64,000 bases of DNA from Leucoraja ocellata (lineage: Eukaryota): assembly GCA_036785375.1 (NCBI GenBank), contig JAWMAR010000531.1, forward strand, positions 868,001 to 932,000, in the 5' to 3' direction. The notes beneath the pieces are model-generated. The model was given only the letters and a program-made list of their open reading frames with translations. It ran no database searches and was not told the DNA's origin. The translations under genes and the position numbers were made by a program. Positions within the stretch are counted from its first letter, which is position 1; every line of letters starts with the position of its first letter. This document shows positions 10,468 to 56,786 of the stretch, in pieces.

Positions 10468-10530
10468 CCAATAATTCAGTGAATCGGTGTCACGTGGATA
10501 AAGATTTGCATGAATAATTAATAAATAGTG
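10468..10530 (+). promoter_or_regulatory. Ig light-chain promoter of G1: CCAAT (10468), E-box CACGTG (10491-10496), octamer ATTTGCAT (10504-10511), AT-rich TATA-like tract
   Basis: Perfect octamer in light-chain orientation ~100 bp upstream of the ATG, conserved in all four clusters. Confidence 0.9.
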
Positions 10531-10610
10531 ACTGAAGACTTTAAAAGAGAAACTTGGAAAGGGCTCAAAACCGCGCTTGTGCAGCAAGATATTCCCTTAT
10601 AACCTTCAAC

Positions 10611-13600
10611 ATGGCTGTATGGGTTTGGGTTCTCGCCTTGGTGACCTGTTTCCACTGTGAGTAGAGCGCAGAATAATTAATGCTGTATCGTTTTACATTC
10701 TGCTGTGTTTTTTTTTCTAATGGTTCTGTATATTTATCTGTTATTTCTATCAGCTATAAACGCGGAGACTACCTTGACTCAGCGCCCGGCTATATCACAA
10801 TCGCCGGGAACAACCGTGAAAATCACCTGTACACTGTCAGGGGGCAGCATAAGTAGCTTCTACACGAGCTGGTACTGGCAGAAGCCGGACAGCAGCCCTG
10901 TCTTGGTGTGGTATCAAACCACCAGAGGCACCGGAATTCCAGACCGATTCACGGGATCCGTGGTCTCATCCACGAACCAAATGCATTTAACCATCACCAA
11001 CGTGCAATCGGAGGACGCGGCCGATTATTACTGTGATGTGTGTGCCCATGGTACCTACATAACCACATTCGGGAAAGGAACCAGACTGAATCTAAGCAGT
11101 AAGTAAAGTATTCACGGTGTGAAACAACAAATCGTTGAACTTGGGTTTTGCTTTCCATCACAAATCCTCGGTAGAAATATCCTATTAGACCTAAGTAGAA
11201 CACAACGGGTCAGCCAGCATCTCCGGTAGACGTATAGATGGGCAATGTTTCGTGTCGGAATCTTTGCGAGACTTTCCCGAACGGAAATATCATCTTTCTT
11301 TGTCCTCCAGAGATGCTGTCTGATCCGCTGGATTACTTCAGCACTTTGTGTTGTACTCAAGATGCCAACATTCGCGGTTCCCTGTTTCTCCTACGTGAAC
11401 TTGTTTTTTTTTTTTAATAATCCTTTACCTCCATCCCTACAACACTCCGGGAAATCTGCGCTCATCTATCCGTGGCTACTTGATCATCGTGGAATTTAAC
11501 GCCTTCACAGACTGGCAGCTGTGCTTCAAATGCGAAGTTGTTAAATTCTGTAATGATCTGAAAGTCTATTTCCCACTTTCTTCCCTGATGTTCACGAAAC
11601 CTGCTCCTATAACAGGAATACTGATTCTCTGATTTGAAGTATCCTCAAGTGGCGGGTTTCATATGAGACTGCTGCTATTGGTCACTTTGCTTCAATATAA
11701 GCGGAATGCAAACCAAAACTGTTGCCGTTACTTGAACAAATGTTCGGGAAATTATGAGATTTCATTAACTTACAGTATATTGTGGACACGGATAATACCA
11801 ACTCTGAGAGTGGGCCAAATAGAATCATTGGAAACATCCAAAGGAAAGTTAATAAACATTTGGCAAGGGATGTCGGTGAATTTAAATGGGATATTTTTGG
11901 AATTGCAAATACCCATTAGGGCAAATTGCGCGAAGTTGATTTCTGATCGTTTTAATGATACCATGAGGGTGAAGTGGCGTTTAGACAGGTTTACACGCGC
12001 TCCCTACAACAGCGCTAAAACTAATTGTCAGGGAAAAGGTTAAAACCAAAATTTAAACGCTTCGCACGGCAGCATTTCAATTCCCTTTGCGCGAAAGCGT
12101 GGAGGATTGTTGCAAGTCTGATTCAGCTCCGAAATTAGAAACAAGAGCAGAACCGGATTCTGGTTCATTCCTCGTTCAGCGAGCCATTGCCACCTTAGCT
12201 GATCACATTTGTGTGGATATGCCGTCAGACTCTTTGTACCCTTGACTCTTGTAGAACCTGCAAGGGATTTTGATGCTGGTTCTCCGATTGCCATCGAGTG
12301 TATGATATAGCAGAAAACGCAGACTGTTCATTATGCTGTTAAACATGATCCCTCTGAGTGTTGATTTTTTTATGGGCAGGCAGTTGGTAGACCGACATGT
12401 CAAAAAAGCTTCAAGGAGCGAGACATAATTTTGCCATTTTCGTATAAATTAATGCAGAAATGGGCACACGTGTATACGAGGTTATTGCTGAATTGCCTTG
12501 AATCGTACGATTGGAAGGAAATAGTACAGCGTCTTTAAATTCAGCATTAGCTTGAAATGTTTTTTAAAGTCCGAATATGTTGGATGTTAAACCCAGAGCT
12601 GTCTGGACATGTGTCAGAAGGAATTTGAATCTGACCAAAACATTTCTTTAGTTTTATCTTTCATTTTTCTGACCGCCACCATCATTGAATCATGGACTTT
12701 CTGGACGATGTGGAAGATTCACTAATAAGTAACATTCTAAAGACTGTTCCGGGATAGAATTGGGATTACTATTTAAACAAGCATTAATTTGGAAATGCTG
12801 CTCATTCTGCCAGGATGAGTTGTATTTACATTTTTCTGCCCGTTTCCATGATCTGTAGAAAATCGTATGTTATATGTTTTACCAAACCTCGGATATACCC
12901 CCATAAAAATTAACTTATCATGATTCTGCTGTATAAAATGAGGTTTATAAATGAACGGTAGTTGTAAAGCCAGTGCAGTACACGGCCATAGAGCCACTGA
13001 GTTATGCAGCGGTGGAACAGTCCTTCAGTCCACCTATTTCATGCCGACCGGGTTGCCCTACTTGAGCTGGTCCCATTTGCGCGTGTCAGGCCCATATCTC
13101 TTTGAACCTTTCTTATCCAAGTATTAATTCAAATGTTTATTTGAATGGTGTTATTGTACCAGCCTCATCAACTTCTCTGGGGAACTCATTCCATGGGGTC
13201 AACGCGTTATGTGTACAAATGTTGCCCTGAACCTAAACCCACTAATTCTTCATTCTCCTACTACGGGGAAAAGACTCCATGCGCTAACCCTATGTATTCC
13301 CCTCGCGATTTTGTAACCGCCATGCGATCACCCTAAGGTCTTCTACACTCCAAGGACTAACGTCCTCGCATATCCAACCTATGCCTATAGTTCAGGCGTT
13401 CGAAACCTGGCACCGTCGGCATATATCTTGCCTGGAGTCATTCCAGCTGAATCGATTCTGACTTTTCAATCAACTGATAAATAATTCATTTGTATTTATT
13501 TCAATTCTTTATTTCCAGGTCCGCGCTCCCCCACCGTTTCCATTCTGGCGCCATCAATGGGTGAAGTCACCGCAAAAAGTACCGCCACCCTGGTGTGTTT

Positions 13601-13841
13601 GGTGAGCGGGTTCAACCCGGGCGTTGTGGACATTAAGTGGACCGTGGACGGCAGTGCGAGAAGTGACGGCGCTGCGACCAGCCGGGTCCAGCAGGAGAAT
13701 GGCAACTCGTTCAGTGCGAGCAGTTACCTGACTCTGCCAGCCGCCTACTGGAACTCACACGAGCTTTACTCCTGTGTGGTTAAACACGACACCCAGGCAA
13801 CCCCGATTAAGGCCAACATCGCCAGATCCAGTTGCCTCTAA
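10611..13841 (+). CDS. IGL: Immunoglobulin light chain G1 (lambda / elasmobranch type II), germline-joined VJ cluster. Exons: leader 10611-10656, L2+VJ 10754-11098, C 13519-13841
   Basis: Spliced by hand: MAVWVWVLALVTCFH-S-INA/ETTLTQ...KITC...WYWQKP...DAADYYC-DVCAHGTYITT-FGKGTRLNLS-S-PRSPTVSILAPS...ATLVCLVSGF...KW...YSCVVKH...RSSCL*. Both introns are GT-AG and phase 1. V and C1 domains have canonical Cys/Trp, and there is a penultimate Cys for the H-L bond. Isotype assigned from recalled motifs (WYWQKP, GIPDRF, MHLTITNVQSEDAADYYC). Confidence 0.95.
11197..11352. repeat. Decayed inverted (palindromic) pair of the same Penelope-like repeat, ~100 bp into the J-C intron of all four genes
   Basis: Left arm (cgggtcagccagcatctccgg) is the reverse complement of the right arm (ccagagatgctgtctgatccg). 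Confidence 0.55.
12985..13400 (-). mobile_element. Highly decayed CR1-like 3' fragment in the J-C intron (all four genes)
   Basis: catagag...ggaacagtccttcagtcca...ggtcccatttg...ggcccatatctct, resembling the reverse complement of the CR1 end at ~950-1050. Confidence 0.5.
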
Positions 13842-14020
13842 TTCAAAGGATCAAATTCCCAATTTGCTCCATTTCTTTGTAAATTAATCCAATATTCAGA
13901 TATGGAATGTTCGCTTTAACAGGGTATTTGTTCAAACACAGCACGTGTGCATTTTGTTGCCGTAAATGCGCTGTTGGTATTTTACGATGAACTGAAAACC
14001 GATAATGTAACATTTAATGC

Positions 14021-14026
14021 AATAAA
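14021..14026 (+). terminator. Poly(A) signal of G1
   Basis: AATAAA 180 nt after the stop codon, conserved in all copies; a second AATAAA follows 70 nt later. Confidence 0.75.
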
Positions 14027-15740
14027 ACAGATTATTCTACTTACGATGCCTCGTTGTAATTTTCTGTGCAAATGTCCTTGCCTTCAATAGAATAAAAACA
14101 ATAATGTCCGATGATGCCAGTGTGTAGAAACTGGTATTTTGTGAAACTTTGTTATATTTCAAATAAACTGCGGTTTCATGATTGATCGTAGATCCATGTG
14201 TTAGGACAGTTGAAGGGACCGCTTGCACATACCCCCCCCCCCCCCCCAGATTGAAGATATTAGGTGCAAACCAGTGGGGCGGGGGGGGGGGGGGGGGGGG
14301 TGGTTGAAGGGGGGATTCGCAACCACAATTAACCGGAGTAAAAGTAGTTACTTCGCGATTCCCAGAAATGGGATAAACAGCTTTCGGGACATGGCAACTG
14401 CTTGGATGTTCTTCTCTGGGAATAAAAAAAGCATGTTTAACAGGGGGAATAAATTGTGCAAATCTGGGGGAAATCTGCTTCCGATGTGAGTGTCCTATCT
14501 GGAGAGATTCTCTACTACGATGTCAGTTTCCAGTAGTACAATAACAGGTTCGGGACGTGTGCTGTCTATTTTTATCCCATCCCTTCCTCCACGGTTATCA
14601 TTCACTCCCTTCCCCCCTTATTTTGTGGCTGATTTCATTTCTTGTTCCTTTTCACCCACAGCCTTTGCCAATTAACCCCCCGCCCCATCTGCTAATCAAC
14701 CCCCTCTCACATGTATCCACCGATCTATCACTTGGCCAGCTGTATCGCACCTCATATCTATTTTACACATTTACCTCCTCTGTTCCAGGGGCACGGCCTG
14801 AAATGATGCCTCGCCTTTCTAATCAGCTGTTGCCTGACCCGTCAAGTCATGTGGAGTCCAATGGCGAAGTCTTGTTTTGCTCGATTTGTACGGTATTATG
14901 ACCACCTCTCTGATCGAATTTACCTCTTCAATCCACTTCTTGTCAGACTTTTCCATGATCTACATTGATATCCTACACCCAGTTGCAAGTCGAACATATC
15001 CATGCTTTGTCCCCATTTTCCTACCTCCGCGAGGCTTCCTTTACTTTTGATGGGCGACGGGTATTTTGGAAATACTGGTCAGCGTTTAGTGTTTCATCAA
15101 CGCAGTATTCCTCAACCTCCATACGAGCTTGGATATTTGGCCCAGTAAGCTCCACGGCGCCACGTGGTTTATTTACAAGAGGTAGTTCAAACAGGTACTA
15201 TAACAACATTTAATAAACATTTGGACAGGTACATTGTTTAGAGGGACACGGGCCACCGCGGGCAGGTGGGACTTGTTGGGCCGAAGGGCATTTTCCTACT
15301 GAATAACTCATAGTGATACTTTTTTTAAATGAAAATAGGTGCAGGAGTAGGCCATTCGGCCCTTCGAGCCTGCACCGCCTTTCAATATGATCACGGCTGA
15401 TACATGCTTACAGCAGAAATGATCGGGACCTGTACAAAAAGAAGCCCAGTTGGCAGGGGAATGCGGGGGCTGGTGGGCAGGAGAACTCATCTCTGTACCG
15501 TAAAATAAAGTTGTCTGGCTGCTCACAATAACACAAGATGTAGCTTCGAGTAAATGTTCATCCTGCATGAAGTGGCGCTGCATTCGACGATGTTCTGTGG
15601 TCCCTGCAGTTATCTTGCTCTTAGATGCTGAATCAATCCAAAAATATTGACATAATCTGCAGCACCTTTGGTATATTTACAGTTCTTGTCATTTATGGGG
15701 AGGCAAATGTAAACTGCTTGATGTGAAAATGCTGGTAATG

Positions 15741-17098
15741 TCCAAGATGCAATTCGGTGCATTAAAACAATATATCAGGAGCCTACAGCTAGGATTAAGG
15801 TAAATGGAAACATATCAAAACGGATCCAGTTAGAGAGGGGCACAAGGCAAGGATGCTGTCTTTCTCCTACTCTCTTCGTTTTGTATATTGAACCCTTAGC
15901 ACAAGCAATAAGGCAGAGAGAAGACCTGCAGGGGGTCAAAATAGGGGGGAAAGAACATATCATTGGTCTTTTCGCTGATGATATCATTATTTTTCTTGAA
16001 CGACCAGATATATGTCTGCCAAATGTAATGAACCTATTTGAAACAAATGGATGCTACTCATGGTATAATGTGGCAGTATAATGTGGATAAATGTGAGGTT
16101 ATCCATTTTGGTGGCAAAAACGGGAAAGCAGACTATTATCTAAATGGTGGCCGATTGGGAAAGGGGGAGGTGCAGCGAGACCTGGGTGTCATGGTACACC
16201 GGTCATTGAAGGTAGGCATGCAGGTGCAGCAGGCAGTAAAGAAAGCGAATGGTACGTTAGCTTTCATTGCAAAAGGATTTGAGTATAGGAGCAGGGAGGT
16301 TCTACTGCAGTTGTACAGGGTCTTGGTGAGACCACACCTGGAGTATTGCGTACAGTTTTGGTCTCCAAATCTGGGATACGGGATAAAATGATTTCTAGAT
16401 TCATTTGGAATAGCAAAAAAACAAGAATAAAACTAACAACACTTCAACTGCCGAAAAGCAAGGGTGGAATGGCTTTACCAAACCTGAGGAAATACTTTTA
16501 TGTAGCTCAACTCAGACCTCTGTTGGTGTAGACCTGATTATGAATCTCGATGGAAAGAAATTGAAAGGGAGATACAGGGTTACCAGATCCAGACTTTGGT
16601 GGGACACTAATATCTGAGAGGGGCTTTGAGACACGCTATGGACCACATAGTAGCATTTACGCTAGAAATATGTAATGTTATAGTGGAAAAATACAAATTA
16701 AAAAGAGGGGTTCACGCATTGAAGTGGTTCGCATATGACTCAAAGTTTAACCAGGGGTGTTTGATTCAAAATTCAAAGAATGGGCACAAAAAGGCATAAT
16801 GGCAATGTATACAGTTTCAGAAAATGGCGAGTTTATGAGCTTCCAAGATTTAAAGTCAAAGTCTGGTCTCGAAAACAAAGATTTTTTTAGAAACTTGTAA
16901 TTAAGAGACTACTTTACAAAAGAGATAAGGCCAGAACTAGATGAAACTTCAAATAATGTGATCAAGGTGATTGTGGATGCATACAAACAGAAGGGGTCTC
17001 GGGTCAACTCTGCTTTCTACCAAGCTCTGATGGGAAGCGGGGGAGAATCAACGCTCTACATAAAAACAAAATAGGAAGCAGAATTAAAGATTCAGATA

Positions 17099-17176
<78 letters not shown>

Positions 17177-21400: not shown

Positions 21401-21569
21401 TCAACAGCCAACATTTTTTTTAGCATTTTTGGAAATTGTGGCTGCAGCAGTGATCTATGAGGCACATCAGTTTTTGCATCTTTCCAACCCGAATTTTCCC
21501 TATTTATGCGTGATCTATGTTTCAAACGAATCGCCCAATGTTCTTTTCTTAACCATAAATACCAAGACT

Positions 21570-24626: not shown

Positions 24627-24690
24627 CCAATAATTCAGTGAATCGGTGTCACGTGGATAAAGATTTGCATGAATAATTAATAATTAGTGA
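24627..24690 (+). promoter_or_regulatory. Ig light-chain promoter of G2 (octamer ATTTGCAT 24663-24670, CACGTG, CCAAT)
   Basis: Same motifs and spacing as G1. Confidence 0.9.
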
Positions 24691-24769
24691 CTGAAGACTT
24701 TAAAAGAGAAACTTGGAAAGGGCTCAAAACCGCGCTTGTGCAGCAAAATATTCCCTTATAACCTTCAAC

Positions 24770-27700
24770 ATGGCTGTATGGGTTTGGGTTCTCGCCTTGG
24801 TGACCTGTTTCCACTGTGAGTAGAGCGCAGAATGATTAATGCTGTATCGTTTTACATTCTGCTGTGTTTTTTTTTCTAATGATTCTGTATATTTATCTGT
24901 TATTTTTATCAGCTATAAACGCGGAGACTACCTTGACTCAGAGCCCGTCTATATCACAATCTCCGGGAACAACCGTGAAAATCACCTGTACACTGTCAGG
25001 GGGCAGCATCGGTAGCTTCTACACGGGCTGGTACTGGCAGAAGCCGGACAGCAGCCCTGTCTTGGTGTGGTATCAAACCACCAGAGGCACCGGAATTCCA
25101 GACAGATTCACGGGATCCGTGGTCCCATCCACGAACCAAATGCATTTAACCATCACCAACGTGCAATCGGAGGACGCGGCCGATTATTACTGTGATGTGT
25201 GTCACAGCAGTACATACATATTCACCTTCGGGAGAGGAACCAAACTGAATCTAAGCAGTAAGTAAAGTATTCACGGTGTGAAACAACAAATCGTTGAACT
25301 TGGGTTTTGCTTTCCATCATAAATCCTCGGTAGAAAGATCTTATTAAACCAAAGTAGACAGGACGGGTCAGCCAGCTTCTCCGGTAGAAGTATAGATGGG
25401 CAATGGTTTGTGTCGGAACCTTTGCGAAAGGTTCCCGAACGGAAATATCATCTTTCTTTGTGGACCAGAGATGCTGTCTGATCCGCTGGATTACTTCAGC
25501 ACTTTGTGTTGTACTCAAGATGCCAACATTCGCGGTTCCTTGTTTCTCCTACGTGAACTTGTTTTTTTTTAAATAATCCTTTACCTCCATCCCTACAACA
25601 CTCCGGGAAATCTGCGCTCATCTATCCGTGGCTACTTGATCATCGTGGAATTTAACGCCTTCACAGACTGACAGCTGTGCTTCAAATGCGAAGTTGTTAA
25701 ATTCTGTAATGATCTGAAAGTATATTTCCCACTTTCTTCCCTGATGTTCATGAAACCTGCTCCTATAACAGGAATACTGATTCTCTGATTTGAAGTATCC
25801 TCAAGTGGCGGGTTCCATATGAGACTGCTGCTATTGGTCACTTTGCTTCAATATAAGCGGAATGCAAACCAAAACTGTTGCCGTTACTTGAACAAATGTT
25901 CGGGAAATTATGAGATTTCATTAACTTACAGTATATTGTGGACACGGATAATACCAACTCTGAGAGTGGGCCAAATAGAATCATTGGAAACATCCAAAGG
26001 AAATTTAATAAACATTTGACAAGGGATGTCGGTGAATTTAAATGGGATATTTTTGGAATTGCAAATACCCATTAGGGCAGATTGCGCGAAGTTGATTTCT
26101 GGTCGTTTTAATGATACCATGAGGGTGAAGTGGCGTTTAGACAGGTTTACACGCGCTCCCTACAACAGCGCTAAAACCAATTGTCAGGGAAAAGGTTAAA
26201 AACAAAATGTAAACGCTTCGCACGGCAGCATTTCAATTCCCTTTGCGCGAAAGCGTGGAGGATTGTTGCAAGTCTGATTCAGCTCCGAAATTAGACACAA
26301 GAGCAGAACCGGATTCTGGTTCATTTCTCGTTCAGCGAGCCATTGCCACCGTAGCTGATCACAATTGTGTGGATATGCCGTCAGACTCTTTGGACCCTTG
26401 ACTCTTGTAGATCCTGCAAGGGATTTTGATGCTGGTTCTCCGATTGCCATCGAGTGTATGATATAGCAGAAAACGCAGACTGTTCATTATGCTGTTAAAC
26501 ATGATCCCTTTGAGTGTTGATTTTTTTTACGGGCAGGCAGTTGGTAGACCGACATGTCAAAAAAGCTTCAAGGAGCGAGACATCATTTTGCCATTTTCGG
26601 ATAAATTAATGCAGAAATGGGCACACGTGTATACGAGGTTATTGCTGAATTGCCTTGAATCGTACGATTGGAAGGAAATAGTACAGCGTCTTTAAATTCA
26701 GCATTAGCTTGAAATGTTGTATGAAGTCCGAATATGTTGGATGTTAAACCCAGAGCTGTCTGGACATGTGTCAGAAGGAATTTGAATCTGACCAAAACAT
26801 TTATTTAGTTTTACCATTCATTTTTCTGCCCGCCACCATCATTGAATCATGGACTTTCTGGACGATGTGGAAGATTCACTAATAAGTAACATTCTAAAGA
26901 CTGTTCCGGGATAGAATTGGGATTACTATTTAAACAAGCATTAATTTGGAAATGCTGCTCATTCTGCCAGGATGAGTTGTATTTACATTTTTTCTGCCCG
27001 TTTCCATGATCTGTAGAAAATCGTATGTTATATGTTTTACCAAACCTCGGATATACCCCCATAAAAAATAACTTATCATGATTTTGCTGTATAAAATGAG
27101 GTTTATAAATGAACGGTAGTTGTAAAGCCAGTGCAGTACACGGCCATAGAGCCACGGAGTTATGCAGCGGTGGAACAGTCCTTCAGTCCACATACTTCAT
27201 GCCGACCGGGTTGCCCTACTTGAGCTGGTCCCATTTGCGCGTGTCAGGCCCATATCTCTTTGAACCTTTCTTATCCAAGTATTAATTCAAATGTTTATTT
27301 AAATGGTGTTATTGTACCTGGCTCATCAACTTCTCTGGGGAACTCATTCCATGGAGTCAACGCATTATGTGAACAAATGTTGCCCTGAACCAAAGCCCTC
27401 TAATTCTTCATTCTCCTACTACGGGGAAAATATTCCATGCGCTAACCCTATGTATTCCCCTCGCGATTTTGTAACCGCTATGCATCACCCTAAGGTCTTC
27501 TACACTCCAAGGACTAACGTCCTCGCATATCCAATCTATGCCTATAGTTCAGGCGTTCGAAACCTGGCACCGTCGGCATATATCTTGCCTGGAGTCATTC
27601 CAGCTGAATCGATTCTGATATTTCAATCAACTGATAAATAATTCATTTGTATTTATTTCAATTCTTTATTTCCAGGTCCGCGCTCCCCCACCGTTTCCAT

Positions 27701-27998
27701 TCTGGCGCCATCAATGGGTGAAGTCACCGCAAAAAATACCGCCACCCTGGTGTGTTTGGTGAGCGGGTTCAACCCGGGCGATGTGGACATTAAGTGGACC
27801 GTGGACGGCAGTGGGAGAAGTGACGGCGCTGCGACCAGCCGGGTCCAGCAGGAGAAGGACAACTCGTTCAGTGCGAGCAGTTACCTGACTCTGCCAGCCG
27901 CCTACTGGAACTCACACGATCTTTACTCCTGTGTGGTTAAACACGAAACCCAGGCAACCCCGATTAAGGCCAACATCGCCAGATCCAGTTGCCTCTAA
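24770..27998 (+). CDS. IGL: Immunoglobulin light chain G2, germline-joined VJ cluster. Exons: 24770-24815, 24913-25257, 27676-27998
   Basis: Exon sizes match G1 (46/345/323 nt), splice sites are intact and the frame is open. CDR3 DVCHSSTYIFT; J motif FGRGTKLNLS. Confidence 0.95.
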
Positions 27999-38195: not shown

Positions 38196-38258
38196 CCAAT
38201 AATTCAGTGAATGGATGTCACGTGGATAAAGATTTGCATGAATAATTAATAATCAGTG
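38196..38258 (+). promoter_or_regulatory. Ig light-chain promoter of G3 (octamer 38232-38239)
   Basis: Same motifs and spacing as G1. Confidence 0.9.
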
Positions 38259-38338
38259 ACTGAAGACTTTAAAAGAGAAACTTGGAAAGGTCTCAAAACC
38301 GCGCTTGTGCAGCAAAATATTCCTGTATCACCTTCAAC

Positions 38339-41300
38339 ATGGCTGTATGTGTTTGGGTTCTCGCCTTAGTGACCTGTTTCCACTGTGAGTAGAGCGCAGA
38401 ATGATTAATGCTGTATCGTTTTACATTCTGCTGTGTTTTTTTTCTAATGGTTCTGTATATTTATCTGTTATTTCTATCAGCTATAAACGCGGAGACTACC
38501 TTGACTCAGAGCCCGGCTATATCACAATCGCCGGGAACAACCGTCAAAATCACCTGTACACTGTCAGGGGGCAGCATCAGTAGCTTGTACACGAGCTGGT
38601 ACTGGCAGAAGCCGAGCAGCAGCCCTGTCTTCGTGTGGTATGAAACCTCAAGAGGCACCGGAATTCCAGACCGATTCACGGGATCCGTGGACTCATCCAC
38701 GAACCAAATGCATTTAACCATCACCAACGTGCAATCGGAGGACGCGGCCGATTATTACTGTGCTGTGTGGGACGACAGTAAAAAAAAATTCACATTCGGG
38801 AGAGGAACCAAACTGAATCTAAGCAGTAAGTAAAGTATTCACGGTGTGAAACAACGAATCGTTGAACTTATGTTTTGCTTTCCATCACAAATCCTCGGTA
38901 GAAAGGTCCTATTAGACCTAAGTAGAACACAACGGGCCAGCCAGCATCTCCGGTAGACCTATAGATGTTTCGTGTCGGAATCTTTGCGAGACTTTCCCGA
39001 ACGGAAATATCATCTTTCTTTGTCCTCCAGAGATGCTGTCTGATCCGCTGGATTACTTCAGCACTTTGTGTTGTACTCAAGATGCCAACATTCGCGGTTC
39101 CTTGTTTCTCCTACGTGAACTTGTTTTTTTAATAATCCTTTACCTCCATCCCTACAACACTGAGAAATCTGCGCTCATCTATCCGTGGCTCCTTGATCAT
39201 CGTGGAATTTAACGCCTTCACAGACTGGCAGCTGTGCTTCAAAGTGGTTAAATTCTGGAATGATCTGAAAGTCTATTTCCCACGTTCTTCCCTGATGTTC
39301 TCGAAACCTGCTCATTTAACAGGAATACTGATTCTCTGATTTGAAGTATCCTCAAGTGGCGGGTTCCATATGAGACTGCTGCTATTGGTCACTTTGCTTC
39401 AATATAAGCGGAATGCAAACCAAAACTGTTGCCGTTACTTGAACAAATGTTTGGGAAATTATGAGATAACTTACAGTATATTGTGGACACGGATAATACC
39501 AACTCTGAGAGAGGGCCAAATAGAATCATTGGAAACATCCAAAGGAAAGTTAATAAACATTTGGCAAGGGATGTCGGTGAATTTAAATGGGATATTTTTG
39601 AAATTGCAAATATCCATTAGGGCAAATTGCGCGAAGTTGATTTCTGATCGTTTTAATGATACCATGAGGGTGAAGTGGCGTTTAGACAAGTTTACACGCG
39701 CTCCCTACAACAGCGCTAAAACTAATTGTCAGGGAAAAGGTTAAAACCAAAATTTAAACGCTTCGCACGGCAGCATTTCAATTCCCTTTGCGCGAAAGCG
39801 TGGAGGATTGTTGCAAGTCTGATTCAGCTCCGAAATTAGAAACAAGAGCAGAACCGGATTCTGGTTCATTCCTCGTTCAGCGAGCCATTGCCACCTTAGC
39901 TGATCACATTTGTGTGGATATGCCGTCAGACTCTTTGTACCCTTGACTCTTGTACATCCTGCAAGGGATTTTGATGCTGGTTCTCCGATTGCCATCGAGT
40001 GTATGATATAGCAGGAAACGGAGACTGTTCATTATGCTGTTAAACATGATCCCTCTGAGTGTTGATTTTTTTATGGGCAGGCAGTTGGTTGACCGACATG
40101 TCAAAAAAGCTTCAAAGAGCGAGACATCATTTTGCCATTTTCGGATAAATTAATGCAGAAATGGGCACACGTGTATACGAGGTTATTGCTGAATTGCCTT
40201 GAATCGTACGATTGGAAGGAAATAGTACAGCGTCTTTAAATTCAGCATTAGCTTGAAATGTTTTTTAAAGTCCGAATATGTTGGATGTTAAACCCAGAGC
40301 TGTCTGGACATGTGTCAGAAGGAATTTGAATCTGACCAAAACATTTCTTTAGTTTTACCTTTCATTTTTCTGCCCGCCACCATCATGGACTTTCTGGACG
40401 ATGTGGAAGATTCACTAATAAGTAACATTCTAAAGACTGTTCCGGGATAGAATTGGGATTACTATTTAATCAAGCATTAATTTGGAAATGCTGCTCATTC
40501 TGCCAGGATGAGTTGTAATTCCATTTTTCTGCCCGTTTCCATGATCTGTAGAAAATAGTATGTTATATGTTTTACCAAACCTCGGCTATACCCCCATAAA
40601 AATTACTTATCATGATCCTGCTGTATAAAATGAGGTTTATAAATGAACGGTAATTGTAAAGCCAGTGCAGTACACGGCCATAGAGCCACGGAGTTATGCA
40701 GCGGTGGAACAGTCCTTCAGTCCAGCTATTTCATGCCGACCGGGTTGCCCTACTTGAGCTGGTCCCATTTGCGCGTGTCAGGCCCATATCTCTTTGAACC
40801 TTTCTTATCCAAGTATTAATTCAAATGTTTATTTAAATGGTGTTATTGTACCTGCCTCATCAACTTCTCTGGGGAACTCATTCCATGGAGTCAACGCATT
40901 ATGTGAACAAATGTTGCCCTGAACCTAAACACACTAATTCTTCATTCCCCTACTACGGGGAAAAGATTCCATGCGCTAACCCTATGTATTCCCCTCGCGA
41001 TTTTGTACACCGATATGCGATCACCCTAAGGTCTTCTACACTCCAAGGACTAACGTCCTCGCATATCCAATCTATGCCTATAGTTCAGGCGTTCGAAACC
41101 TGGCACCGTCGGCATATATCTTGCCTGGAGTCATTCCAGCTGAATCGATTCTGACTTTTAAATCAACTGATAAATAATTCACTTGTATTTATTTCAATTC
41201 TTTATTTCCAGGTCCGCGCTCCCCCCACCGTTTCCATTCTGGCGCCATCAATGGGTGAAGTCACCGCAAAAAATACCGCCACCCTGGTGTGTTTGGTGAG

Positions 41301-41535
41301 CGGGTTCAACCCGGGCGCTGTGGACATTAAGTGGACCGTGGACGGCAGTGCGAGAAGTGACGGCGCTGCGACCAGCCGGGTCCAGCAGGAGAAGGACAAC
41401 TCGTTCAGTGCGAGCAGTTACCTGACTCTGCCAGCCGCCTACTGGAACTCACACGATCTTTACTCCTGTGTGGTTAAACACGAAACCCAGGCAACCCCGA
41501 TTAAGGCAGACATCGCCAGATCCAGTTGCCTCTAA
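38339..41535 (+). pseudogene. IGL: Immunoglobulin light chain G3, germline-joined VJ with a frameshifted C exon. Exons: 38339-38384, 38481-38825, 41212-41535
   Basis: Leader and VJ are intact (CDR3 AVWDDSKKKFT). The C exon is 324 nt rather than 323 because of a C6 run at 41221-41226 (C5 in the other three copies). The spliced frame reads SPRSPHRFHSGAING* with TGA at 41256-41258. A homopolymer sequencing error cannot be excluded. Confidence 0.7.
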
Positions 41536-41714
41536 TTCAAAGGATCAAATTCCCGATTTGCTCCATTTCTTTGTAAATTAATCCAATATTCAGATATGGA
41601 ATGTTCGCTTTAACAGGGTATTTGTTCAAACGCAGCACGTGTGCATTTTGTTGCCGCGAATGCGCTGTTGGTATTTTACGATGAACTGAAAAACGATAAT
41701 GTAACATTTAATGC

Positions 41715-41720
41715 AATAAA
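41715..41720 (+). terminator. Poly(A) signal of G3
   Basis: AATAAA at the homologous position. Confidence 0.75.
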
Positions 41721-43758: not shown

Positions 43759-46482
43759 TCCAAGATGCAATTCGGTGCATTAAAACAATATATCAGGAGC
43801 CTACAGCTAGGATTAAGGTAAATGGAAACATATCAAAACGGATCCAGTTAGAGAGGGGCACAAGGCAAGGATGCTGTCTTTCTCTTACTCGCTTCGTTTT
43901 GTATATTGAACCCTTAGCACAAGCAATAAGGCAGAGAGAAGACCTGCAGGGGGTCAAAATGGGGGGAAAGAACATATAATTGGTCTTTTCGCTGATGATA
44001 TCATTATTTTTCTTGAACGACCAGATATATGTCTCCCAAATGTAATGAACCTATTTGAAACAAATGGATACTACTCAGGGTATAAACTGAATATAACAAA
44101 AACACAAATTATTTCATTCAATTATACTCCATCCCAACAAATCAGAGATGCATATAATCTGGAATGGAATTCTAAAACGATGCAGTATCTTGGTGTAACT
44201 ATAACCAAAACACTTTCCAACTCGTTTGAAACTAATTATAACAAAATTGAAGAAAACATCAAAAAGGATGTTGAAAGGTGGTCGACCCTTTCCCTAGACT
44301 TCAGTGCCAGAATACAAACGGTAAAAATGAATATCCTACCTAAACTACTATATTTATTCCAATCTCTCCCAATTAATGTCCCCCGAGATAAATCCATAGC
44401 CTGGGATAAAATGGTCTCTAGATTCATTTGGAATAGCAAAAAAACAAGAATAAAACTAACAACACTTCAACTGCCGAAAAGCAAGGGTGGAATGGCTTTA
44501 CCAAATCTGAGGAAATACTTTTATGTAGCTCAACTCAGACCTCTGTTGGTGTAGACCTGATTATGAATCTCGATGGAAAGAAATTGAAAGGTAGATACAG
44601 GGTTACCAGATCCAGATTTTGGTGGGAGACTAATATCTGAGAGGGGCTTTGAGACACGCTATGGACCACATAGTAGCATTTACGTTAGAAATATGTAATG
44701 TTATAGTGGAAAAATACAAATTAAAAAGAGGGGTTCACGCATTGAAGTGGTTCGCATATGACTCAAAGTTTAACCAGGGGTGTATGATTCAAAATTCAAA
44801 GAATGGGCACAAAAAGGCATAATGGCAATGTATACAGTTTCAGAAAATGGCGAGTTTATGAGCTTCCAAGATTTAAAGTCAAAGTCTGGTCTCGAAAACA
44901 AAGATTTTTTTAGATACTTGCAATTAAGAGACTACTTTACAAAAGAGATAAGGCCAGAACTAGATGAAACTTCAAATAATGTGATCAAGGTGATTGTGGA
45001 TGCATACAAACAGAAGGGGTCTCGGGTCAACTCTGCTTTCTACCAAGCTCTGATGGGAAGCGGGGGAGAATCAACGCTCTACATAAAAACAAAATAGGAA
45101 GCAGNNNNNNNNNNNNNNNNNNNNNNNNNNNNNNNNNNNNNNNNNNNNNNNNNNNNNNNNNNNNNNNNNNNNNNNNNNNNNNNNNNNNNNNNNNNNNNNN
45201 NNNNNNNNNNNNNNNNNNNNNNNNNNNNNNNNNNNNNNNNNNNNNNNNNNACATTTATAGTCAATTTTCATTGACCCCAAAGTGCTTTACATAATTTAAA
45301 AATCAGTTCCATACAAAGCATAAAGATGGGTTAACAAAATAATAAAATGCATAAACAGGACACAACATGTAACATAAACATCCACCACAGCATTCATCAC
45401 TGTGGTGGAAGACACAAACAATTTTGGCCGTCCTCCTCCATTCCCCCCCCCCCCCCGTGGACAAGACCAGAGTCCAGAGTCCAGTCCAGGATCGGTCTTT
45501 CCTCACCGGAGACCGCGGCTTCAAGATTGTGTAGGCCGCAGGCCGGCGGTTGAGATTTAAAGTCCCCGCCGCAGCCAGAAGCACCGTAGACTGCAGGGCC
45601 GGCGGTCGAAGCTCCCCTCCAGGGGCGATGGTAAGTCCATGCCGGGCCCGCAGTAGAAGTTATCCACGGGCCGGCAATGGCGGCTTCTTCTTCCCCCATA
45701 AGAAGAATGGTATCAAATGTGTGAAACACAATGTCCTTCCACAAGCACACTAGTATGGAAAAAGTTTTGCTGGAAGAATCTATCTCGCTTTTTTTTATAA
45801 GCAGCAAACTCACTGTCCAACAACACTGTTGGAGGCTGTGTGGGAGTACGGAGGCAGACCACTCGCATATTTTCTGGAATTGTGTAAAGATAAGGCCATA
45901 CTGGGAAAATGTTAATGCAGCTGTAAAAAATATCTTGGGTTATAAAATCCCAAATACCTGCCATGTGATGTATCTGGGGCGTATTAAAGATATTGTAAAA
46001 ATAAAAGATACATATTTGATTAAAGTTTTGCTTGCAGCAAGTAAGAAGGCCATTACCAGGCAGTGGCTTAATGAAAAAGTCTAAAACAGGAACAGTGGTT
46101 AGAAATTGTGCGAGACATCTTTAATATGGAGAAATTGACATATTCCTTGAGAGTCAAGGAAAATTCATTTGAGAAGATCTGGGAATAATGGACCATTTAT
46201 TTGAGTCATGACACCAATTAGATAAATGCCGAGCTAGATATGGGAAGATTGCGTTATATAGAACTAGATGGTATGTTTGTATGATTATTGAATTATCACC
46301 AGATAACTAATCAATGTAATGTTTTTTCTTTTTTTAAGTTGGTAAAGTGAACCACGGTCTTATTCCAATTTTTTTTTTTAATTTACTTCTTTTATTTCCC
46401 CTATCTACTTATTTTTTTATTTTGATTGTTGTTTTTCTTACTTTGTTTTATTTATGGTGATGGTGTTGCACGGTTTTGTATA
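43759..46482 (+). mobile_element. Decayed L1/Tx1-clade LINE, U4 copy (most complete)
   Basis: RT motifs plus the 169-aa ORF at 44045-44554. Confidence 0.85.
45105..45250. other. Assembly gap (146 N) at the position of the (TAA)n microsatellite in U4
   Basis: Flanks match the sequence either side of the (TAA)n tract in the other units. Confidence 0.95.
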
Positions 46483-47068
46483 TCTATTATCTATTATATA
46501 TATAAAACTCAAATCCGTCCGTCCGCCTGCAGTACGGATCCCTTCCTGCCTTTCGATTCGTGCCCGATAGTCGCAGATGTCGAATCGGAATGGCCGATGC
46601 TCGCAGATGTCCAATCGGAATGGATTCATTTGCATGTACGGCTGCCGGCTGCATTTCTTCCTTTGATTCATTGCCACGCCCAATCCAGACGCTCAATCTC
46701 CGAGATATTTTCCATTTCGGTAGAGATTTCGCTTTTCTTTCTAAGTAACCGCTCCTCATTTCATTTCGTCGTGCTGAAGTACATGTTTTTAATCAAATCC
46801 TTCTCCCCCCCCCCCCCCCCACACACCCCCAAGTATTTCACAAATAAACATGCTTCTCCATTTACATGTCAGCTTCCAACACACTTCGAAACAAAATTGC
46901 AAGAGAGGAACACTGAACTTATCACTGCTGCAGCAGGCAGGGGAGGGCTGCAATCTTACATTTGGGAACGGGCTCAGTTCCAATGGAGGAGGCGGGTGCA
47001 TGGCGGAATATTGGGTTGGGGGATCACACCATTGGGGGAGCAGCCCAACGGGTCTGCACTTGGTCTAG
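46483..47068 (+). mobile_element. Non-autonomous Helitron (586 bp), private to U4
   Basis: 5' TC(TATTATCTATTATATATATAAAA), 3' CTAG, subterminal hairpin GCAGCCC-AAC-GGGTCTGC (47040-47057). Inserted between A and T with no TSD; the empty site ttttgtata^tatctcttaa is present in the other four units. Confidence 0.9.
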
Positions 47069-50000: not shown

Positions 50001-50549
50001 TAGATGCTAACACTGTTACCTTTCATAGGTAGTTGTTGTACCTCATTCTAGCTTGTTGCGTATCCTCACCAGGGAACCGAAATAATTCTGCATCTCAAAA
50101 CACTGCAAAAAGTCATAGTGTAAATAAGAAGGGTCTCGACCCGAAACGTCACCCATTCCTTCTCTCCAGAGACGCTGCCCGTCCCGCTGAGTTAGTCCAG
50201 CATTTTGTGTCTATATTGTAAAGAACATTATTTTGTATCAGTTACCCTCCCAAAATTGACATTCCACATGTTCCCACATCCCGCATTTGCCAGGCCTTTG
50301 CCCATTCACGGGAACTATCCACATGCACGGCGGCCTTGGTTGGTGCTTCATGTCATTAGCAAATTCAACAGCCAACATTTTGTAGCTTTTTTGACTGTGT
50401 GTAAACATTTTTGGGAATTGTGGCTCCAGCAGTGATCTATGAGGCACATCAGTTTTTGCATCTTTCCAACCAGAAATTAGCCTGTTTATGCGTTTTCTAT
50501 GTTTCCAACTAATCTGTTCTTCCGATTTCCATAAACACCAGCACTCTCA

Positions 50550-51620
50550 GTAAAAAGGAGCAGGAGAAGACCATTCGGCCCTTCGAGCTGCACCTCCATT
50601 CAATATGATCATGGCTGATAGTCCAAAATCAGTACCCCGTTCCTGCTTTCTCCCCTATCCCTTGATTCCGTCAGCCCTAAAAGCTATATCTAACTCTCTC
50701 TTGAACATATCCAGTGAATGGCCTCCACTGCCTCCACTTGTATGGCAGAGAATACCACAGTCACAACTCTCTGGGTAAAAACGTGTTTCCGCATTTCAGT
50801 AAGGCCCTACCCCTTCTTTTTAAACTGCAACCCCTGGTTCTTGACTCCCCCAACATCGGGCATATATTCCCTGCATCTAGCGTATCCAACCTCTTAAGAA
50901 TTTTATATGTTTCTATAAGAACCCTTCAAATCCTTCAAAATTCCAGTGCATATAAGCCCTGTCAATCATTTGTCAGTTCCACCATCCCGGGAATTAATCT
51001 GGTGAATTTACGTTGCACTCTTTCAATAGCAAGAATGTCCTTCCGCATATTAGGATACCAAACCTGCACACAATACTCCAGGTATGGTCTCACCAGGGCC
51101 CTGTACAACTGCAGTAGGTCCTCCATGCTCCTGCACTCAAATCCTCTCGCTATGAAGGCCAACGTGTCATTTGCTTTCTTCACTTCCGACTGTACCAGCA
51201 TGATTTATTTCTGTGACTGGTGTTCAAGGACACCCAGGTCTCGTTGCACCCCCCCCCCCCTTTCCCTAATCTGACACCATTCGATTATAATCTGCCTTCT
51301 TGTTTTTGCCCCCAAAGTGGATAACCGCATATTTATGCACAAAGTACTGCATAATCTTGTCCAGGTCACCCTGCAGCCTCCTAGCATCCTCCTCGCAGCT
51401 CACACTGCCACTCAGCGTTGTGTGATCCGCAAACATGGAGATGTTACATTTAATTCCTTCATCATCGTCAATATATCTTGTAAATAACCGAGGTCCCATC
51501 ACCGAGCCTTGTGGCACGCCACTAGTCACTGCCAGCCATTGTGAAAAGGACCCGTTAATTCCTATTCTTTGCTTCCTGTCTGCCATACAAGCTCTCCATC
51601 CATATCAATAACCTACCCCC
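50550..51620 (-). mobile_element. CR1-like LINE (U4)
   Basis: TSGVPQGSVMGP...FADHT RT motifs. Confidence 0.85.
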
Positions 51621-53230
51621 AATGTTACCATATTATTTACCATATCAACCTTCGATTCATCACCTTATCAAATGCCTCCTCGAAATTATACCTGCCTGGC
51701 ATTGTACTTCTTCAAAGCCTTTGGTTAAATTGGTGAAACATCGTTCATGAATTCATAAATTGTAGGATAATTAGGCCATTTGGCCCATCAATTCTACCTC
51801 GCAATCCTATCACGCTTGGTTTATCTTTTCTTCTCAACCCCATTCTCCTGACTTCTTCTCATAACCCTTAACACTGTTACTAATTAACAACCACTCAATC
51901 TCCACCTTAAAAATATCCATCGACTTGGCTCCCACAGCCTCCTGCGGCAACGAATTACACAGATTCACTACCCTCTGTCTAAAGGAATTCCTCCCCATGT
52001 CCTTTCTAAATAGACGTGCTTTTATTCTGAGGCTTTCACCTCTGGTCCTAGGCTCCCCCGCTCGTCGAAACATCCACTCCACATCCACTCTATCCGGGCC
52101 TTTCACGATTCGGTTAATTTCAATGAGGTCTTCCCCCCCTCTCGTCCTTATAAAGTATATAGCGAGCACGGACACAGTGCCGTCAAACGCTCATCACATG
52201 TTAACCCAATTATCCCTGGAATCCCCCTCGGAAACCTCCTCTGGACCCTCTCCAACGCCAGCTCATCCTTCCTCAGATTGGAGCCGAAAACTGCTCACCA
52301 CACTCCAAATGCGGTCTGACCAGTGTCTTATAAAGGCTTAGCATTACATTCCTGTTTTTGTATTTTGTTTTTGTGTTCTGGCCCTCTCCAAAGAAATGCT
52401 TTCCTTACTACCGACTTGTAAATTAACTTCACCACCCTGCACCAGCACTCCCAAGCCCCTCTGCTCTCATTTCTAAATTATCTCTCTTTCTCAACAACAT
52501 TTTGACTTTTGCGAGATAACCTGGATCATTTTGTCAGTGCCCTTTATATCGATTGGGTAACAGCTTGCAATATTTCTCCAGGACAGATGTGCAACCAACT
52601 GGCCTGCGGTGGACGACTTTCTGTCTCCCCTTCTGGATAAAAATGAATACCAAGGAACGTCCATGGTAGTTTTGAAATAAAAAAACTCAAAGCAATGAAT
52701 TCAGCGCTGCAACGGAATGAATTAAGACTCCAGAATGCAATACAATACATCTTAACGCCCTGTCAGCCCGTGTCTCTATCGACTTCCTAATGATTGCAAC
52801 TTTTGTGAGTTTGTTTCTTGCTTCCGTGTCTGCAGCCGTTTCTGTGATGTTAAGTCCATGTTCTGTGGAGCAGACCGATGAAAAATTACCATTTAATTTA
52901 TCTGTCATCTCCATGTTCCCCTTTAATTATACGGCTGCGAATTATTTGTAGGAAAAGGACAAATGTATTATTTTATAATTATTTGGAAGCTTAAGGTGAT
53001 TAGTGCAAAGTCTCTACAGTGCCACCATTCAACACAGCTGACACCGTTTACTCAGTAAATAAGAGCCTGCTCTCACACAACAGTTCCCGTGTGAGTCTCA
53101 GAGCTTCTCTCCCCCTCCCCCCGCCGCCGTTGAGTTCACTGTTGTCTGCTATTCTCCTCCCACTTAAAACAACATGAATATTTTTTTCTCCCAAAGGGCT
53201 GGAGCTGCAGAAATATCATTTTACCCCGAG

Positions 53231-53293
53231 CCAATAATTCAGTGAATGGATGTCACGTGGATAAAGATTTGCATGAATAATTAATAATCAGTG
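53231..53293 (+). promoter_or_regulatory. Ig light-chain promoter of G4 (octamer 53267-53274)
   Basis: Same motifs and spacing as G1. Confidence 0.9.
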
Positions 53294-53373
53294 ACTGAAG
53301 ACTTTAAAAGAGAAACTTGGAAAGGTCTCAAAATCGCGCTTGTGCAGCAAAATATTCCCTTATAACTTTCAAC

Positions 53374-56300
53374 ATGGCTGTATGGGTTTGGGTTCTCGCC
53401 TTGGTGACCTGTTTCCACTGTGAGTAGAGCGCAGAATGATTAATGCTGTATCGTTTTACATTCTGCTGTGTTTTTTTCTAATGGTTCTGTATATTTATCT
53501 GTTATTTCTATCAGCTATAAACGCGGAGACTACCTTGACTCAGAGCCCGGCTATATCACAATCGCCGGGAACAACCGTGAAAATCACCTGTACACTGTCA
53601 GGGGGCAGCATCGGTAGCTTCTACACGAGCTGGTACTGGCAGAAGCCGAGCAGCAGCCCTGTCTTCGTGTGGTATGAAGGCTCCAGAGGCACCGGAATTC
53701 CAGACCGATTCACGGGATCCGTGGTCTCATCCACGAACCAAATGCATTTAACCATCACCAACGTGCAATCGGAGGACGCGGCCGATTATTACTGTGCTGT
53801 GTGGGACAACAGTAACGACAAATTCACCTTCGGGAGAGGAACCAAACTGAATCTAAGCAGTAAGTAAAGTATTCACGGTGTGAAACAACGAATCGTTGAA
53901 CTTATGTTTTGCTTTCCATCACAAATCCTCGGTAGAAATATCCTATTAGACCTAAGTAGAACACAACGGGCCAGCCAGCATCTCCGGTAGACGTATAGAT
54001 GGGCAATGGTTTGTGTCGGAACCTTTGCGAAACGTTCCCGAACGGTAATATCATCTTTCTTTGTGGACCAGAGATGCTGTCTGATCCGCTGGATTACTTC
54101 AGCACTTTGTGTTGTACTCAAGATGCCAACATTCGCGGTTCCTTGTTTCTCCTACGTGAACTTGTTTTTTTTTAAATAATCCTTTACCTCCATCCCTACA
54201 ACACTCCGGGAAATCTGCGCTCATCTATCCGTGGCTTCTTGATCATCGTGGAATTTAACGCCTTCACAGACTGACAGCTGTGCTTCAAATGCGAAGTTGT
54301 TAAATTCTGTAATGATCTGAAAGTCTATTTCCCACTTTCTTCCCTGATGTTCACGAAACCTGCTCCTATAACAGGAATACTGATTCTCTGATTTGAAGTA
54401 TCCTCAAGTGGCGGGTTTCATATGAGACTGCTGCTATTGGTCACTTTGCTTCAATATAAGCGGAATGCAAACCAAAACTGTTGCCGTTACTTGAACAAAT
54501 GTTCGGGAAATTATGAGATTTCATTAACTTACAGTATATTGTGGACACGGATAATACCAACTCTGAGAGTGGGCCAAATAGAATCATTGGAAACATCCAA
54601 AGGAAAGTTAATAAACATTTGGCAAGGGATGTCGGTGAATTTAAATGGGATATTTTTGGAATTGCAAATACCCATTAGGGCAAATTGCGCGAAGTTGATT
54701 TCTGATCGTTTTAATGATACCATGAGGGTGAAGTGGCGTTTAGACAGGTTTACACGCGCTCCCTACAACAGCGCTAAAACTAATTGTCAGGGAAAAGGTT
54801 AAAACCAAAATGTAAACGCTTCGCACGGCAGCATTTCAATTCCCTTTGCGCGAAAGCGTGGAGGATTGTTGCAAGTCTGATTCAGCTCCGAAATTAGAAA
54901 CAAGAGCAGAACCGGATTCTGGTTCATTCCTCGTTCAGCGAGCCATTGCCACCTTAGCTGATCACATTTGTGTGGATATGCCGTCAGACTCTTTGTACCC
55001 TTGACTCTTGTAGAACCTGCAAGGGATTTTGATGCTAGTTCTCCGATTGCCATCGAGTGTATGATATAGCAGAAAACGCAGACTGTTCATTATGCTGTTA
55101 AACATGATCCCTCTGAGTGTTGATTTTTTTTATGGGCAGGCAGTTGGTAGACCGACATGTCAAAAAAGCTTCAAAGAGCGAGACATAATTTTCCATTTTC
55201 TGATAAATTAATGCAGAAATGGGCACACGTGTATACGAGGTTATTGCTGAATTGCCTTGAATCGTACGATTGGAAGGAAATAGTACAGCGTCTTTAAATT
55301 CAGCATTAGCTTGAAATGTTTTTTAAAGTCCGAATATGTTGGATGTTAAACCCAGAGCTGTCTGGACAAGTGTCAGAAGGAATTTGAAACTGACCAAAAC
55401 ATTTCTTTAGTTTTACCATTCATTTTTCTGCCCGCCACCATCATTGAATCATGAACTTTCTGGACGATGTGGAAGATTCACTAATAAGTAACATTCTAAA
55501 GATTGTTCCGGGATATAATTGGGATTACTATTTAAACAAGCATTAATTTGGAAATGCTGCTCATTCTGCCAGGATGAGTTGTATTTACATTTTTTCTGCC
55601 CGTTTCCATGATCTGTAGAAAATCGTATGTTATATGTTTTACCAAACCTCGGATATACCCCCATAAAAATTAACTTATCATGATTCTGCTGTATAAAATG
55701 AGGTTTATAAATGAACGGTAGTTGTAAAGCCAGTGCAGTACACGGCCATAGAGCCACGGAGTTATGCAGCGGTGGAACAGTCCTTCAGTCCACCTATTTC
55801 ATGCCGACCGGGTTGCCCTACTTGAGCTGGTCCCATTTGCGCGTGTCAGGCCCATATCTCTTTGAACCTTTCTTATCCAAGTATTAATTCAAATGTTTAT
55901 TTGAATGGTGTTATTGTACCAGCCTCATCAACTTCTCTGGGGAACTCATTCCATGGGGTCAACGCGTTATGTGTACAAATGTTGCCCTGAACCTAAACCC
56001 ACTAATTCTTCATTCTCCTACTACGGGGAAAAGACTCCATGCGCTAACCCTATGTATTCCCCTCGCGATTTTGTAACCGCCATGCGATCACCCTAAGGTC
56101 TTCTACACTCCAAGGACTAACGTCCTCGCATATCCAACCTATGCCTATAGTTCAGGCGTTCGAAACCTGGCACCGTCGGCATATATCTTGCCTGGAGTCA
56201 TTCCAGCTGAATCGATTCTGACTTTTCAATCAACTGATAAATAATTCATTTGTATTTATTTCAATTCTTTATTTCCAGGTCCGCGCTCCCCCACCGTTTC

Positions 56301-56601
56301 CATTCTGGCGCCATCAATGGGTGAAGTCACCGCAAAAAGTACCGCCACCCTGGTGTGTTTGGTGAGCGGGTTCAACCCGGGCGTTGTGGACATTAAGTGG
56401 ACCGTGGACGGCAGTGCGAGAAGTGACGGCGCTGCGACCAGCCGGGTCCAGCAGGAGAATGGCAACTCGTTCAGTGCGAGCAGTTACCTGACTCTGCCAG
56501 CCGCCTACTGGAACTCACACGAGCTTTACTCCTGTGTGGTTAAACACGACACCCAGGCAACCCCGATTAAGGCCAACATCGCCAGATCCAGTTGCCTCTA
56601 A
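53374..56601 (+). CDS. IGL: Immunoglobulin light chain G4, germline-joined VJ cluster. Exons: 53374-53419, 53515-53859, 56279-56601
   Basis: Exons of 46/345/323 nt, intact splice sites, open frame. CDR3 AVWDNSNDKFT. C-domain translation is identical to G1. Confidence 0.95.
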
Positions 56602-56780
56602 TTCAAAGGATCAAATTCCCAATTTGCTCCATTTCTTTGTAAATTAATCCAATATTCAGATATGGAATGTTCGCTTTAACAGGGTATTTGTTCAAACACA
56701 GCACGTGTGCATTTTGTTGCCGTAAATGCGCTGTTGGTATTTTACGATGAACTGAAAACCGATAATGTAACATTTAATGC

Positions 56781-56786
56781 AATAAA
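56781..56786 (+). terminator. Poly(A) signal of G4
   Basis: AATAAA at the homologous position. Confidence 0.75.

Follow-up and report, generated by a model that had tools for sequence, protein, structure and literature searches.

A tandem array of lambda-type light-chain genes with apparently germline-fused VJ exons in the skate Leucoraja ocellata

In cartilaginous fishes, all lambda (NS3, type II) immunoglobulin light-chain genes are joined in the germ line in every species studied (PMC4279169, PMC5192425). Six lambda loci are given for the nurse shark (PMC5192425), a type II light chain is listed for the little skate (PMC5985310), and the genes of sandbar shark, skate, and NS3 are described as all joined, with cDNAs (PMC2193156). 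Type I genes of the little skate form at least 89 clusters, all joined, which carry replacement changes biased to the complementarity-determining regions (CDRs), are expressed, and are possibly mutated (Anderson et al. 1995, PMC2192082). Lee et al. (2000, PMC2193156) explained the joining by a RAG-like activity of germ cells, and the genomic distribution of miniclusters is described as not well known (PMC12227049). The present analysis concerns a 64-kb stretch of the genome of the skate Leucoraja ocellata (the window; G000:C531:868001-932000, on contig JAWMAR010000531.1 of a 3.44-Gb assembly), which carries four tandem light-chain genes. No description of the base-level spacing, order, or mosaic history of a skate lambda locus was found in the literature searched, a weak negative since subscription papers were mostly missing and supplements were absent.

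It is very probable that these are lambda (type II) genes with variable (V) and joining (J) segments fused in the germ line, likely amplified by exchange between units, and with CDRs likely kept diverse by selection. The gene type itself is already known in sharks and skates; the addition made here is modest and consists of the CDR-focused differences between copies and their likely shuffling.

Structure, isotype and germline state of the genes

Four leader-VJ-constant (C) clusters, all on the forward strand, are spaced 13.6-15.0 kb apart in the window (Table 1). Each has an exact octamer, ATTTGCAT, 107 nt 5' of its ATG, followed by a 46-nt leader exon, a leader intron of 95-97 nt, a 345-nt exon in which V and J are fused, a J-C intron of 2386-2420 nt, and a single C exon. 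Every intron is GT-AG, and the first AATAAA stands about 180 nt past the stop codon in each of the four copies. The VJ exon is called as a V-set and the C exon as a C1-set domain, one C1-set exon per cluster, and the spliced products of copies 1, 2, and 4 are open frames of 237 amino acids. Processed retrocopies are ruled out by the retention of both introns and of the octamer. Same-strand clusters about 14 kb apart, each with its own octamer promoter, a fused 345-nt exon devoid of a recombination signal sequence (RSS), and retained introns had all been put forward in the original prediction, and the anatomy bears them out.

The closest protein matches come from Leucoraja and Amblyraja and are annotated as 'lambda-1 light chain-like', with identities of 79-83% in VJ and 92-94% in C, followed by proteins of sawfish, rays, sharks, and chimaeras; sandbar shark entries named lambda are 65-66% identical in VJ and 66-68% in C. 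A V tree of 47 rows was built from 21 of the 58 lambda genes of the locus, 22 database proteins, and 4 genes of other contigs (one sandbar shark row, P0102, was left out, and the midpoint root serves for drawing only). In this tree the window genes form a clade with three skate proteins (98/95), and this clade sits in a wider group (98/93) that includes sandbar shark lambda as well as chimaera chains. The outgroups, which are other light-chain genes of this genome and not named references, fall outside the lambda group (99/94) with 35-42% V identity. A sigma-2/type I identity was rejected: the V regions are only 38-42% identical to the genes of contigs C94 and C230, which we take to be type I in the same way as we take the genes of C6 to be sigma, with no named reference for either, and the window genes lie outside their clade. 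Three joined genes of this other type surfaced (L140-141 on C230, L144-145 on C94), a number to be read as a lower bound.

J lies in the same exon as V in 58 of 58 lambda V exons from four contigs (1.26 Mb), and no split lambda gene was found among them. An RSS with up to 3 mismatches was absent in and just 3' of the VJ exon in all 56 parsed genes, and among the 11 sites returned by a scan of the 1.26 Mb at up to 2 mismatches none lies at a V-J junction (nine are a leader motif of the window's subfamily and two are outside the clusters). The two C6 genes (L142, L143) served as a control. Both are split: V has a heptamer-12-nonamer signal behind it, which is a good 12-RSS, while J lies about 400 nt downstream and is preceded by a poor nonamer. 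Since the scan recovers them, the assembly retains unrearranged light-chain genes. In addition, part of the stretch is present in 20 of the 24 public sequencing runs listed, which fall under four coded organisms or carry no label. A 268-base contig from one of them, X1, spans the V-J junction gap-free with a different CDR3, at a depth of 81.5 against 80-119 for intron contigs. The proposed identity as germline-joined type II/lambda genes thus draws on homology, the V tree, the split C6 genes, the X1 contig, and the reviews. The suggested independence of RAG holds for these genes only and not for the animal as a whole, which has an intact RAG1 (a 1049-aa open frame, found once in the assembly).

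A different origin for the joins would be somatic rearrangement, or hypermutated B-cell DNA, caught in an assembly made from blood or lymphoid tissue. Differences do concentrate in the CDRs, CDR3 length is 9-11 residues, as in somatic products, and the tissue source is on record neither for the assembly nor for X1, which may be the source sample. However, every lambda V exon is joined on all four contigs, yet the C6 genes are unrearranged; the variable sites show no preference for AID WRC/GYW hotspots (for VJ, odds ratio 0.84 and p 0.82; for the CDRs, p 1.0); and the same or nearly the same CDR3 recurs in different units (0/27 differences for b3/b4, 1/33 for w3/b6). The joined contig stands at flank depth in X1, and joined lambda is the rule in the literature. 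Such a somatic origin is almost certainly wrong, and we infer that the joined VJ is the germline state in this animal.

Extent of the locus and divergence among its copies

The array was predicted to run beyond both ends of the window, with the next leader roughly 4 kb past the right edge. That leader is located at window-equivalent 67770, 3,770 bases beyond the edge, and a further cluster on the left ends 159 bases before the window start. The extension is limited to this one copy of the subfamily on each side. Six copies in all are present on C531, with leaders 13.6-15.0 kb apart (the window holds copies 2-5 of this run, numbered 1 to 4 here), bordered on the left by unrelated genes and continued on the right by further lambda subfamilies. 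They form the left end of a lambda locus of 23 clusters over 301 kb, which ends at 1,166 kb; two clusters are inverted and 20 parse intact. A second deep group of joined genes (C531:977-1166 kb and C384:714-937 kb) has V regions 43-51% identical to those of the window but the same C type (60-75%), and mostly lacks a perfect octamer; every sampled subfamily of this group has a counterpart among annotated skate proteins.

Contig C384 is collinear with C531; their identity is about 98% in the flanks and reaches 100% along one stretch of 1,085 bases. It holds 27 parsed or partly parsed clusters in two blocks with scaffold gaps between them, among which are six further copies of the window's subfamily. 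None is a 1:1 partner of a C531 copy, no C531 unit has a clear allelic partner on C384, and intron differences across the two contigs are 2.3-4.8%. The exact octamer, 107 nt upstream, is present in 12/12 subfamily copies, and most downstream subfamilies carry it with 1-2 mismatches. One extra C exon beside a gap on C384 was left uncounted, and a C-exon search of C384:510001-680000 found no lambda C exon. With 5 clusters from C4271 and 3 from C4817, the lambda V exons total 58, of which 51 parse intact (one via a doubtful acceptor), 5 are broken, and 2 are unparsed; this total is not a gene count, as the contigs are likely alternative haplotypes. From their collinearity, C531 and C384 are likely two haplotypes of one animal. 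Since the assembly likely holds both haplotypes here, genome-wide gene counts are inflated; since RAG1 was found once, the assembly is not diploid throughout. Scaffold gaps of 200 N cut the locus at C384 290210, 804146, and 942717 and at C531 975258, and, compared with C531, the second C384 block has the inverse orientation and lies about 420 kb away, the result of either a mis-join or a structural difference.

The array might in part be an assembly artefact, in which fewer of the genes are real, alleles or read errors were stacked head to tail, and C384 is a duplicated haplotype. The close collinearity of the contigs would agree with this, as would a stretch of 146 N (45105-45250) in the spacer between copies 3 and 4 and the position of all five 1-base indels, found by aligning four frameshifted genes, in homopolymer or two-base runs. 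However, more than two distinct sequences are present, and pairwise differences among the 12 copies amount to 2.0-9.3% for VJ and 0.7-4.9% for the intron. CDR-focused changes are not expected from read error, six units 12.7-15.0 kb apart occur on each contig independently, and annotated skate and ray genomes list several such proteins, apparently on one contig each. An artefact of this kind is therefore very improbable.

Divergence was measured on the 12 copies (6 per contig, 66 pairs), with region limits set from motifs. The mean difference is 1.9% in the leader, 3.1% in framework region (FR) 1, 3.9% in FR2, 1.3% in FR3, 3.1% in FR4, and 1.8% in C, with a value of 1.0% for the leader intron and one of 3.1% for the J-C intron. 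It rises to 5.7% in CDR1, 16.5% in CDR2, and 24.5% in CDR3, and none of 2241 intron windows of 33 nt exceeds a difference of 12.9%. The pooled proportions of nonsynonymous (pN) and synonymous (pS) differences are 0.155 and 0.078 in the CDRs and 0.022 and 0.035 in the frameworks; pS in C is 0.014. Selection for different CDRs is suggested by these values. No CpG excess was seen among the copy differences. An extra Cys is present in the CDR3 of 3/12 copies, namely copies 1 (11036-11068) and 2 (25195-25227) and one C384 copy, and also in the Leucoraja protein P0001, with no obvious partner within the same domain.

Whole units are 95-98.7% identical across 8.8-10 kb in a self-alignment of the window, far beyond chance, and fragments of LINE-type (long interspersed nuclear element) reverse transcriptase in the spacers are common to the units. 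A test of the pairwise homoplasy index (PHI) type on 158 informative sites gave 0.336 against 0.457 +/- 0.010 for shuffled sites (p = 0.0005), neighbouring sites being far more compatible than shuffled ones; such compatibility of near sites is what recombination or conversion leaves behind. Between copies 1 and 4 the C exons show no difference and the introns one of 1.3%, but 12 of 33 CDR3 bases differ, while units w3 and b6 have an almost wholly common VJ and an intron difference of 3.3%. This patchwork shows that the copies are recombinant mosaics. The unequal crossing-over of a unit of about 14 kb proposed in the original prediction is supported by the unit similarity, the common LINE fragments, and the recombination signal, although gene conversion and crossing-over are indistinguishable here.

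CDR3 may also have been actively rewritten in the germ line, by AID-type tandem mutation, donor-templated conversion, or repeated rejoining, and not only sorted by selection. Its pS of 0.22 matches its pN and is well above that of the frameworks and of C, and 55% of its differences have a differing neighbour as compared with 19% in the intron; germline rejoining is moreover documented for nurse shark NS4 (PMC2193156). However, CDR3 has just 11 codons, and at a divergence of 24% chance would already produce about 43% adjacency. No AID hotspot bias exists, no split lambda gene turned up that could have been rejoined, and the same CDR3 Cys type occurs in a skate of another genus (P0001). CDR3 lineages long kept by balancing selection, with homogenisation of their flanks by conversion, would give the same pattern. 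Rewriting is therefore considered unlikely. A related reading carries a similarly low probability: a germ-line repertoire engine, in which CDR3 and CDR2 modules are actively rewritten or swapped between joined genes in germ cells so fast that the two haplotypes of one animal share no matching unit. If true, it would supply heritable antibody diversity in place of junctional diversity.

The preferred reading of exchange together with selection can be described as follows. In each cluster the octamer promoter is predicted to drive transcription, and splicing of leader, VJ, and C would give a light chain of 237 residues with no cutting by RAG. Unequal crossing-over and gene conversion likely raised the number of the units of about 14 kb and made them uniform, and selection likely retains differing antigen-binding loops, CDR3 above all, so that the inherited array would substitute for junctional diversity. 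Nurse shark NS3 genes undergo somatic hypermutation, and by analogy this process would likely add diversity in B cells.

Several points weigh against this reading, in addition to the tissue record mentioned above. In the assembly, a single surplus C within a C5 run, 9 nt from the start of the C exon, shifts the frame of copy 3, so that three of the four window copies are intact; this copy is possibly a pseudogene, or the shift an assembly error. Since all 1-base indels sit in same-base or two-base runs, assembly error is suggested for the frameshifts, though short of proof. Most 'lambda' names among the protein matches are automatic annotation; the isotype call is based on the tree and on the entries of sandbar shark. 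For the difference between CDR pN and pS, the bootstrap interval spans zero (-0.011 to 0.156), CDR3 pN (0.25) is about equal to pS, and the copy pairs are not independent; therefore, selection is suggested and not demonstrated. Three RNA runs of a related label, whose tissue is not stated, are neutral as to expression: X22 and X23 gave zero exon reads, and X24 covered V and C at less than 1x depth and gave no splice joint. Almost all RNA-run reads on the stretch come from a repeat at 11300-11350. None of the 24 public runs listed with the stretch is marked as RNA, and X19 and X20, with a small share, are possibly RNA.

Leader motif and neighbouring elements

An RSS-like motif covers the leader and its splice donor on the reverse strand in 12/12 subfamily copies (9 with 2 mismatches, 3 with 3). 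Among 20000 synonymous recodings of the leader, 2421 (12%) contain a motif of this kind, no V-type partner with up to 3 mismatches is present in the window, and the same form is absent from the other 44 parsed lambda leaders. It was therefore rejected for now as a functional signal and is likely a by-product of codons or chance. The idea that through this motif RAG switches clusters off and so enforces one gene per cell would be extremely improbable.

A Pfam scan of 5 of the 17 other long open reading frames (ORFs) of the window gave two reverse-transcriptase fragments and three without a Pfam match. At window position 46628, a spacer insertion contains a fifth octamer, which no gene follows.

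Two V domains, each encoded by a single exon and with a J-like end (L024:665-1012 and L021:5031-5633, both on the reverse strand), are located at 848.7-849.0 kb and 823.2-823.6 kb of C531; the first lambda gene lies 16 and 41 kb, respectively, to their right, and similar domains occur at two places on C384. Sawfish, stingray, catshark, and zebra shark have relatives of them, uncharacterised proteins of 255-305 aa in which a single V domain is accompanied by a hydrophobic stretch and by several tyrosine motifs in the tail; a protein atlas ranks PD-1, BTLA, and CTLA-4-like clusters beside the sawfish relative. By these features they are likely candidates for an inhibitory receptor like those of the CD28/PD-1 family. 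Three of the four relatives apparently share a contig with the lambda genes of their own species, which suggests conserved linkage. The accessible part of a shark PD-1 paper (PMC12151841) names neither these V-domain loci nor a lambda link.

Table 1. Positions of the light-chain gene elements and other features in the 64-kb window
Feature	Position	Strand	Remarks
Copy 1 putative promoter	10491..10511	+	E-box-like CACGTG and octamer ATTTGCAT (10504-10511); function assigned from consensus
Copy 1 leader exon	10611..10656	+	46 nt
Copy 1 fused VJ exon	10754..11098	+	345 nt; V-set; extra Cys in CDR3
Copy 1 C exon	13519..13841	+	323 nt; C1-set; ORF 237 aa; AATAAA 14021
Copy 2 octamer and leader exon	24663..24815	+	octamer 24663; leader 24770-24815
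Copy 2 fused VJ exon	24913..25257	+	345 nt; extra Cys in CDR3
Copy 2 C exon	27676..27998	+	spliced ORF 237 aa; AATAAA 28178
Copy 3 octamer and leader exon	38232..38384	+	octamer 38232; leader 38339-38384
Copy 3 fused VJ exon	38481..38825	+	345 nt; open
Copy 3 C exon	41212..41535	+	324 nt; extra C shifts frame
Copy 4 octamer and leader exon	53267..53419	+	octamer 53267; leader 53374-53419
Copy 4 fused VJ exon	53515..53859	+	345 nt
Copy 4 C exon	56279..56601	+	0/323 differences vs copy 1; ORF 237 aa; AATAAA 56781
LINE-type reverse-transcriptase fragment in spacer	1524..2126	+	RVT_1, E 5e-7; duplicated with unit
LINE-type reverse-transcriptase fragment in spacer	43910..44551	+	RVT_1, E 2e-7
RSS-like motif over copy 1 leader and splice donor	10622..10659	-	perfect heptamer, 22-nt spacer, nonamer with 2 mismatches
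RSS-like leader motif, copies 2, 3, 4	24781-24818, 38350-38387, 53385-53422	-	copies 2 and 4 the same; copy 3 with 3 mismatches

Use of the locus map and comparison with known systems

The value of the locus lies in the map, i.e. 23 ordered, sequence-distinct, ready-to-express light-chain genes with cluster-specific CDR3s on one contig. With these CDR3s, single-cell RNA would reveal directly whether just one joined gene is in use in a B cell, and the map would separate somatic mutation from inherited variation; the reference genomes of other skates already give the same handle on the one-gene-per-cell question. How one cluster is chosen per cell is a real but old question, which the sequence does not address; a 2017 study reportedly described light-chain isotype exclusion in shark B cells. 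If C531 and C384 are haplotypes, the lack of matching units would point to a fast turnover of the inherited repertoire.

The nearest relatives are the lambda-1-like proteins of Leucoraja erinacea and Amblyraja radiata (P0001-P0003), which belong to the same subfamily, with a near-identical leader, a length of 237-238 aa, and the C identity given above. They differ in their CDR sequences and are known here from proteins and not from gene structure. The lambda clusters of other chondrichthyans (horn shark and skate type II, nurse shark NS3, and sandbar shark) share the single leader-VJ-C cassette, germline-joined and with no RSS. However, the nurse shark has six lambda loci, whereas 23 clusters are present here on one contig, in several subfamilies, some of them only 43-51% identical in V to the window genes. 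Skate type I genes (sigma-2/sigma-cart) are likewise all joined, in many clusters, with differences concentrated in the CDRs, but they are of another isotype, and the presumed type I genes of this genome lie outside the lambda clade; those that surfaced here number three, as a lower bound, against at least 89 reported in the little skate (PMC2192082). Nurse shark kappa NS4 (PMC2193156) resembles the present genes in its joined VJ, leader intron, J-C intron, and retained octamer; however, NS4 mixes split with recently joined genes, whereas the 58 lambda genes here include no split one.

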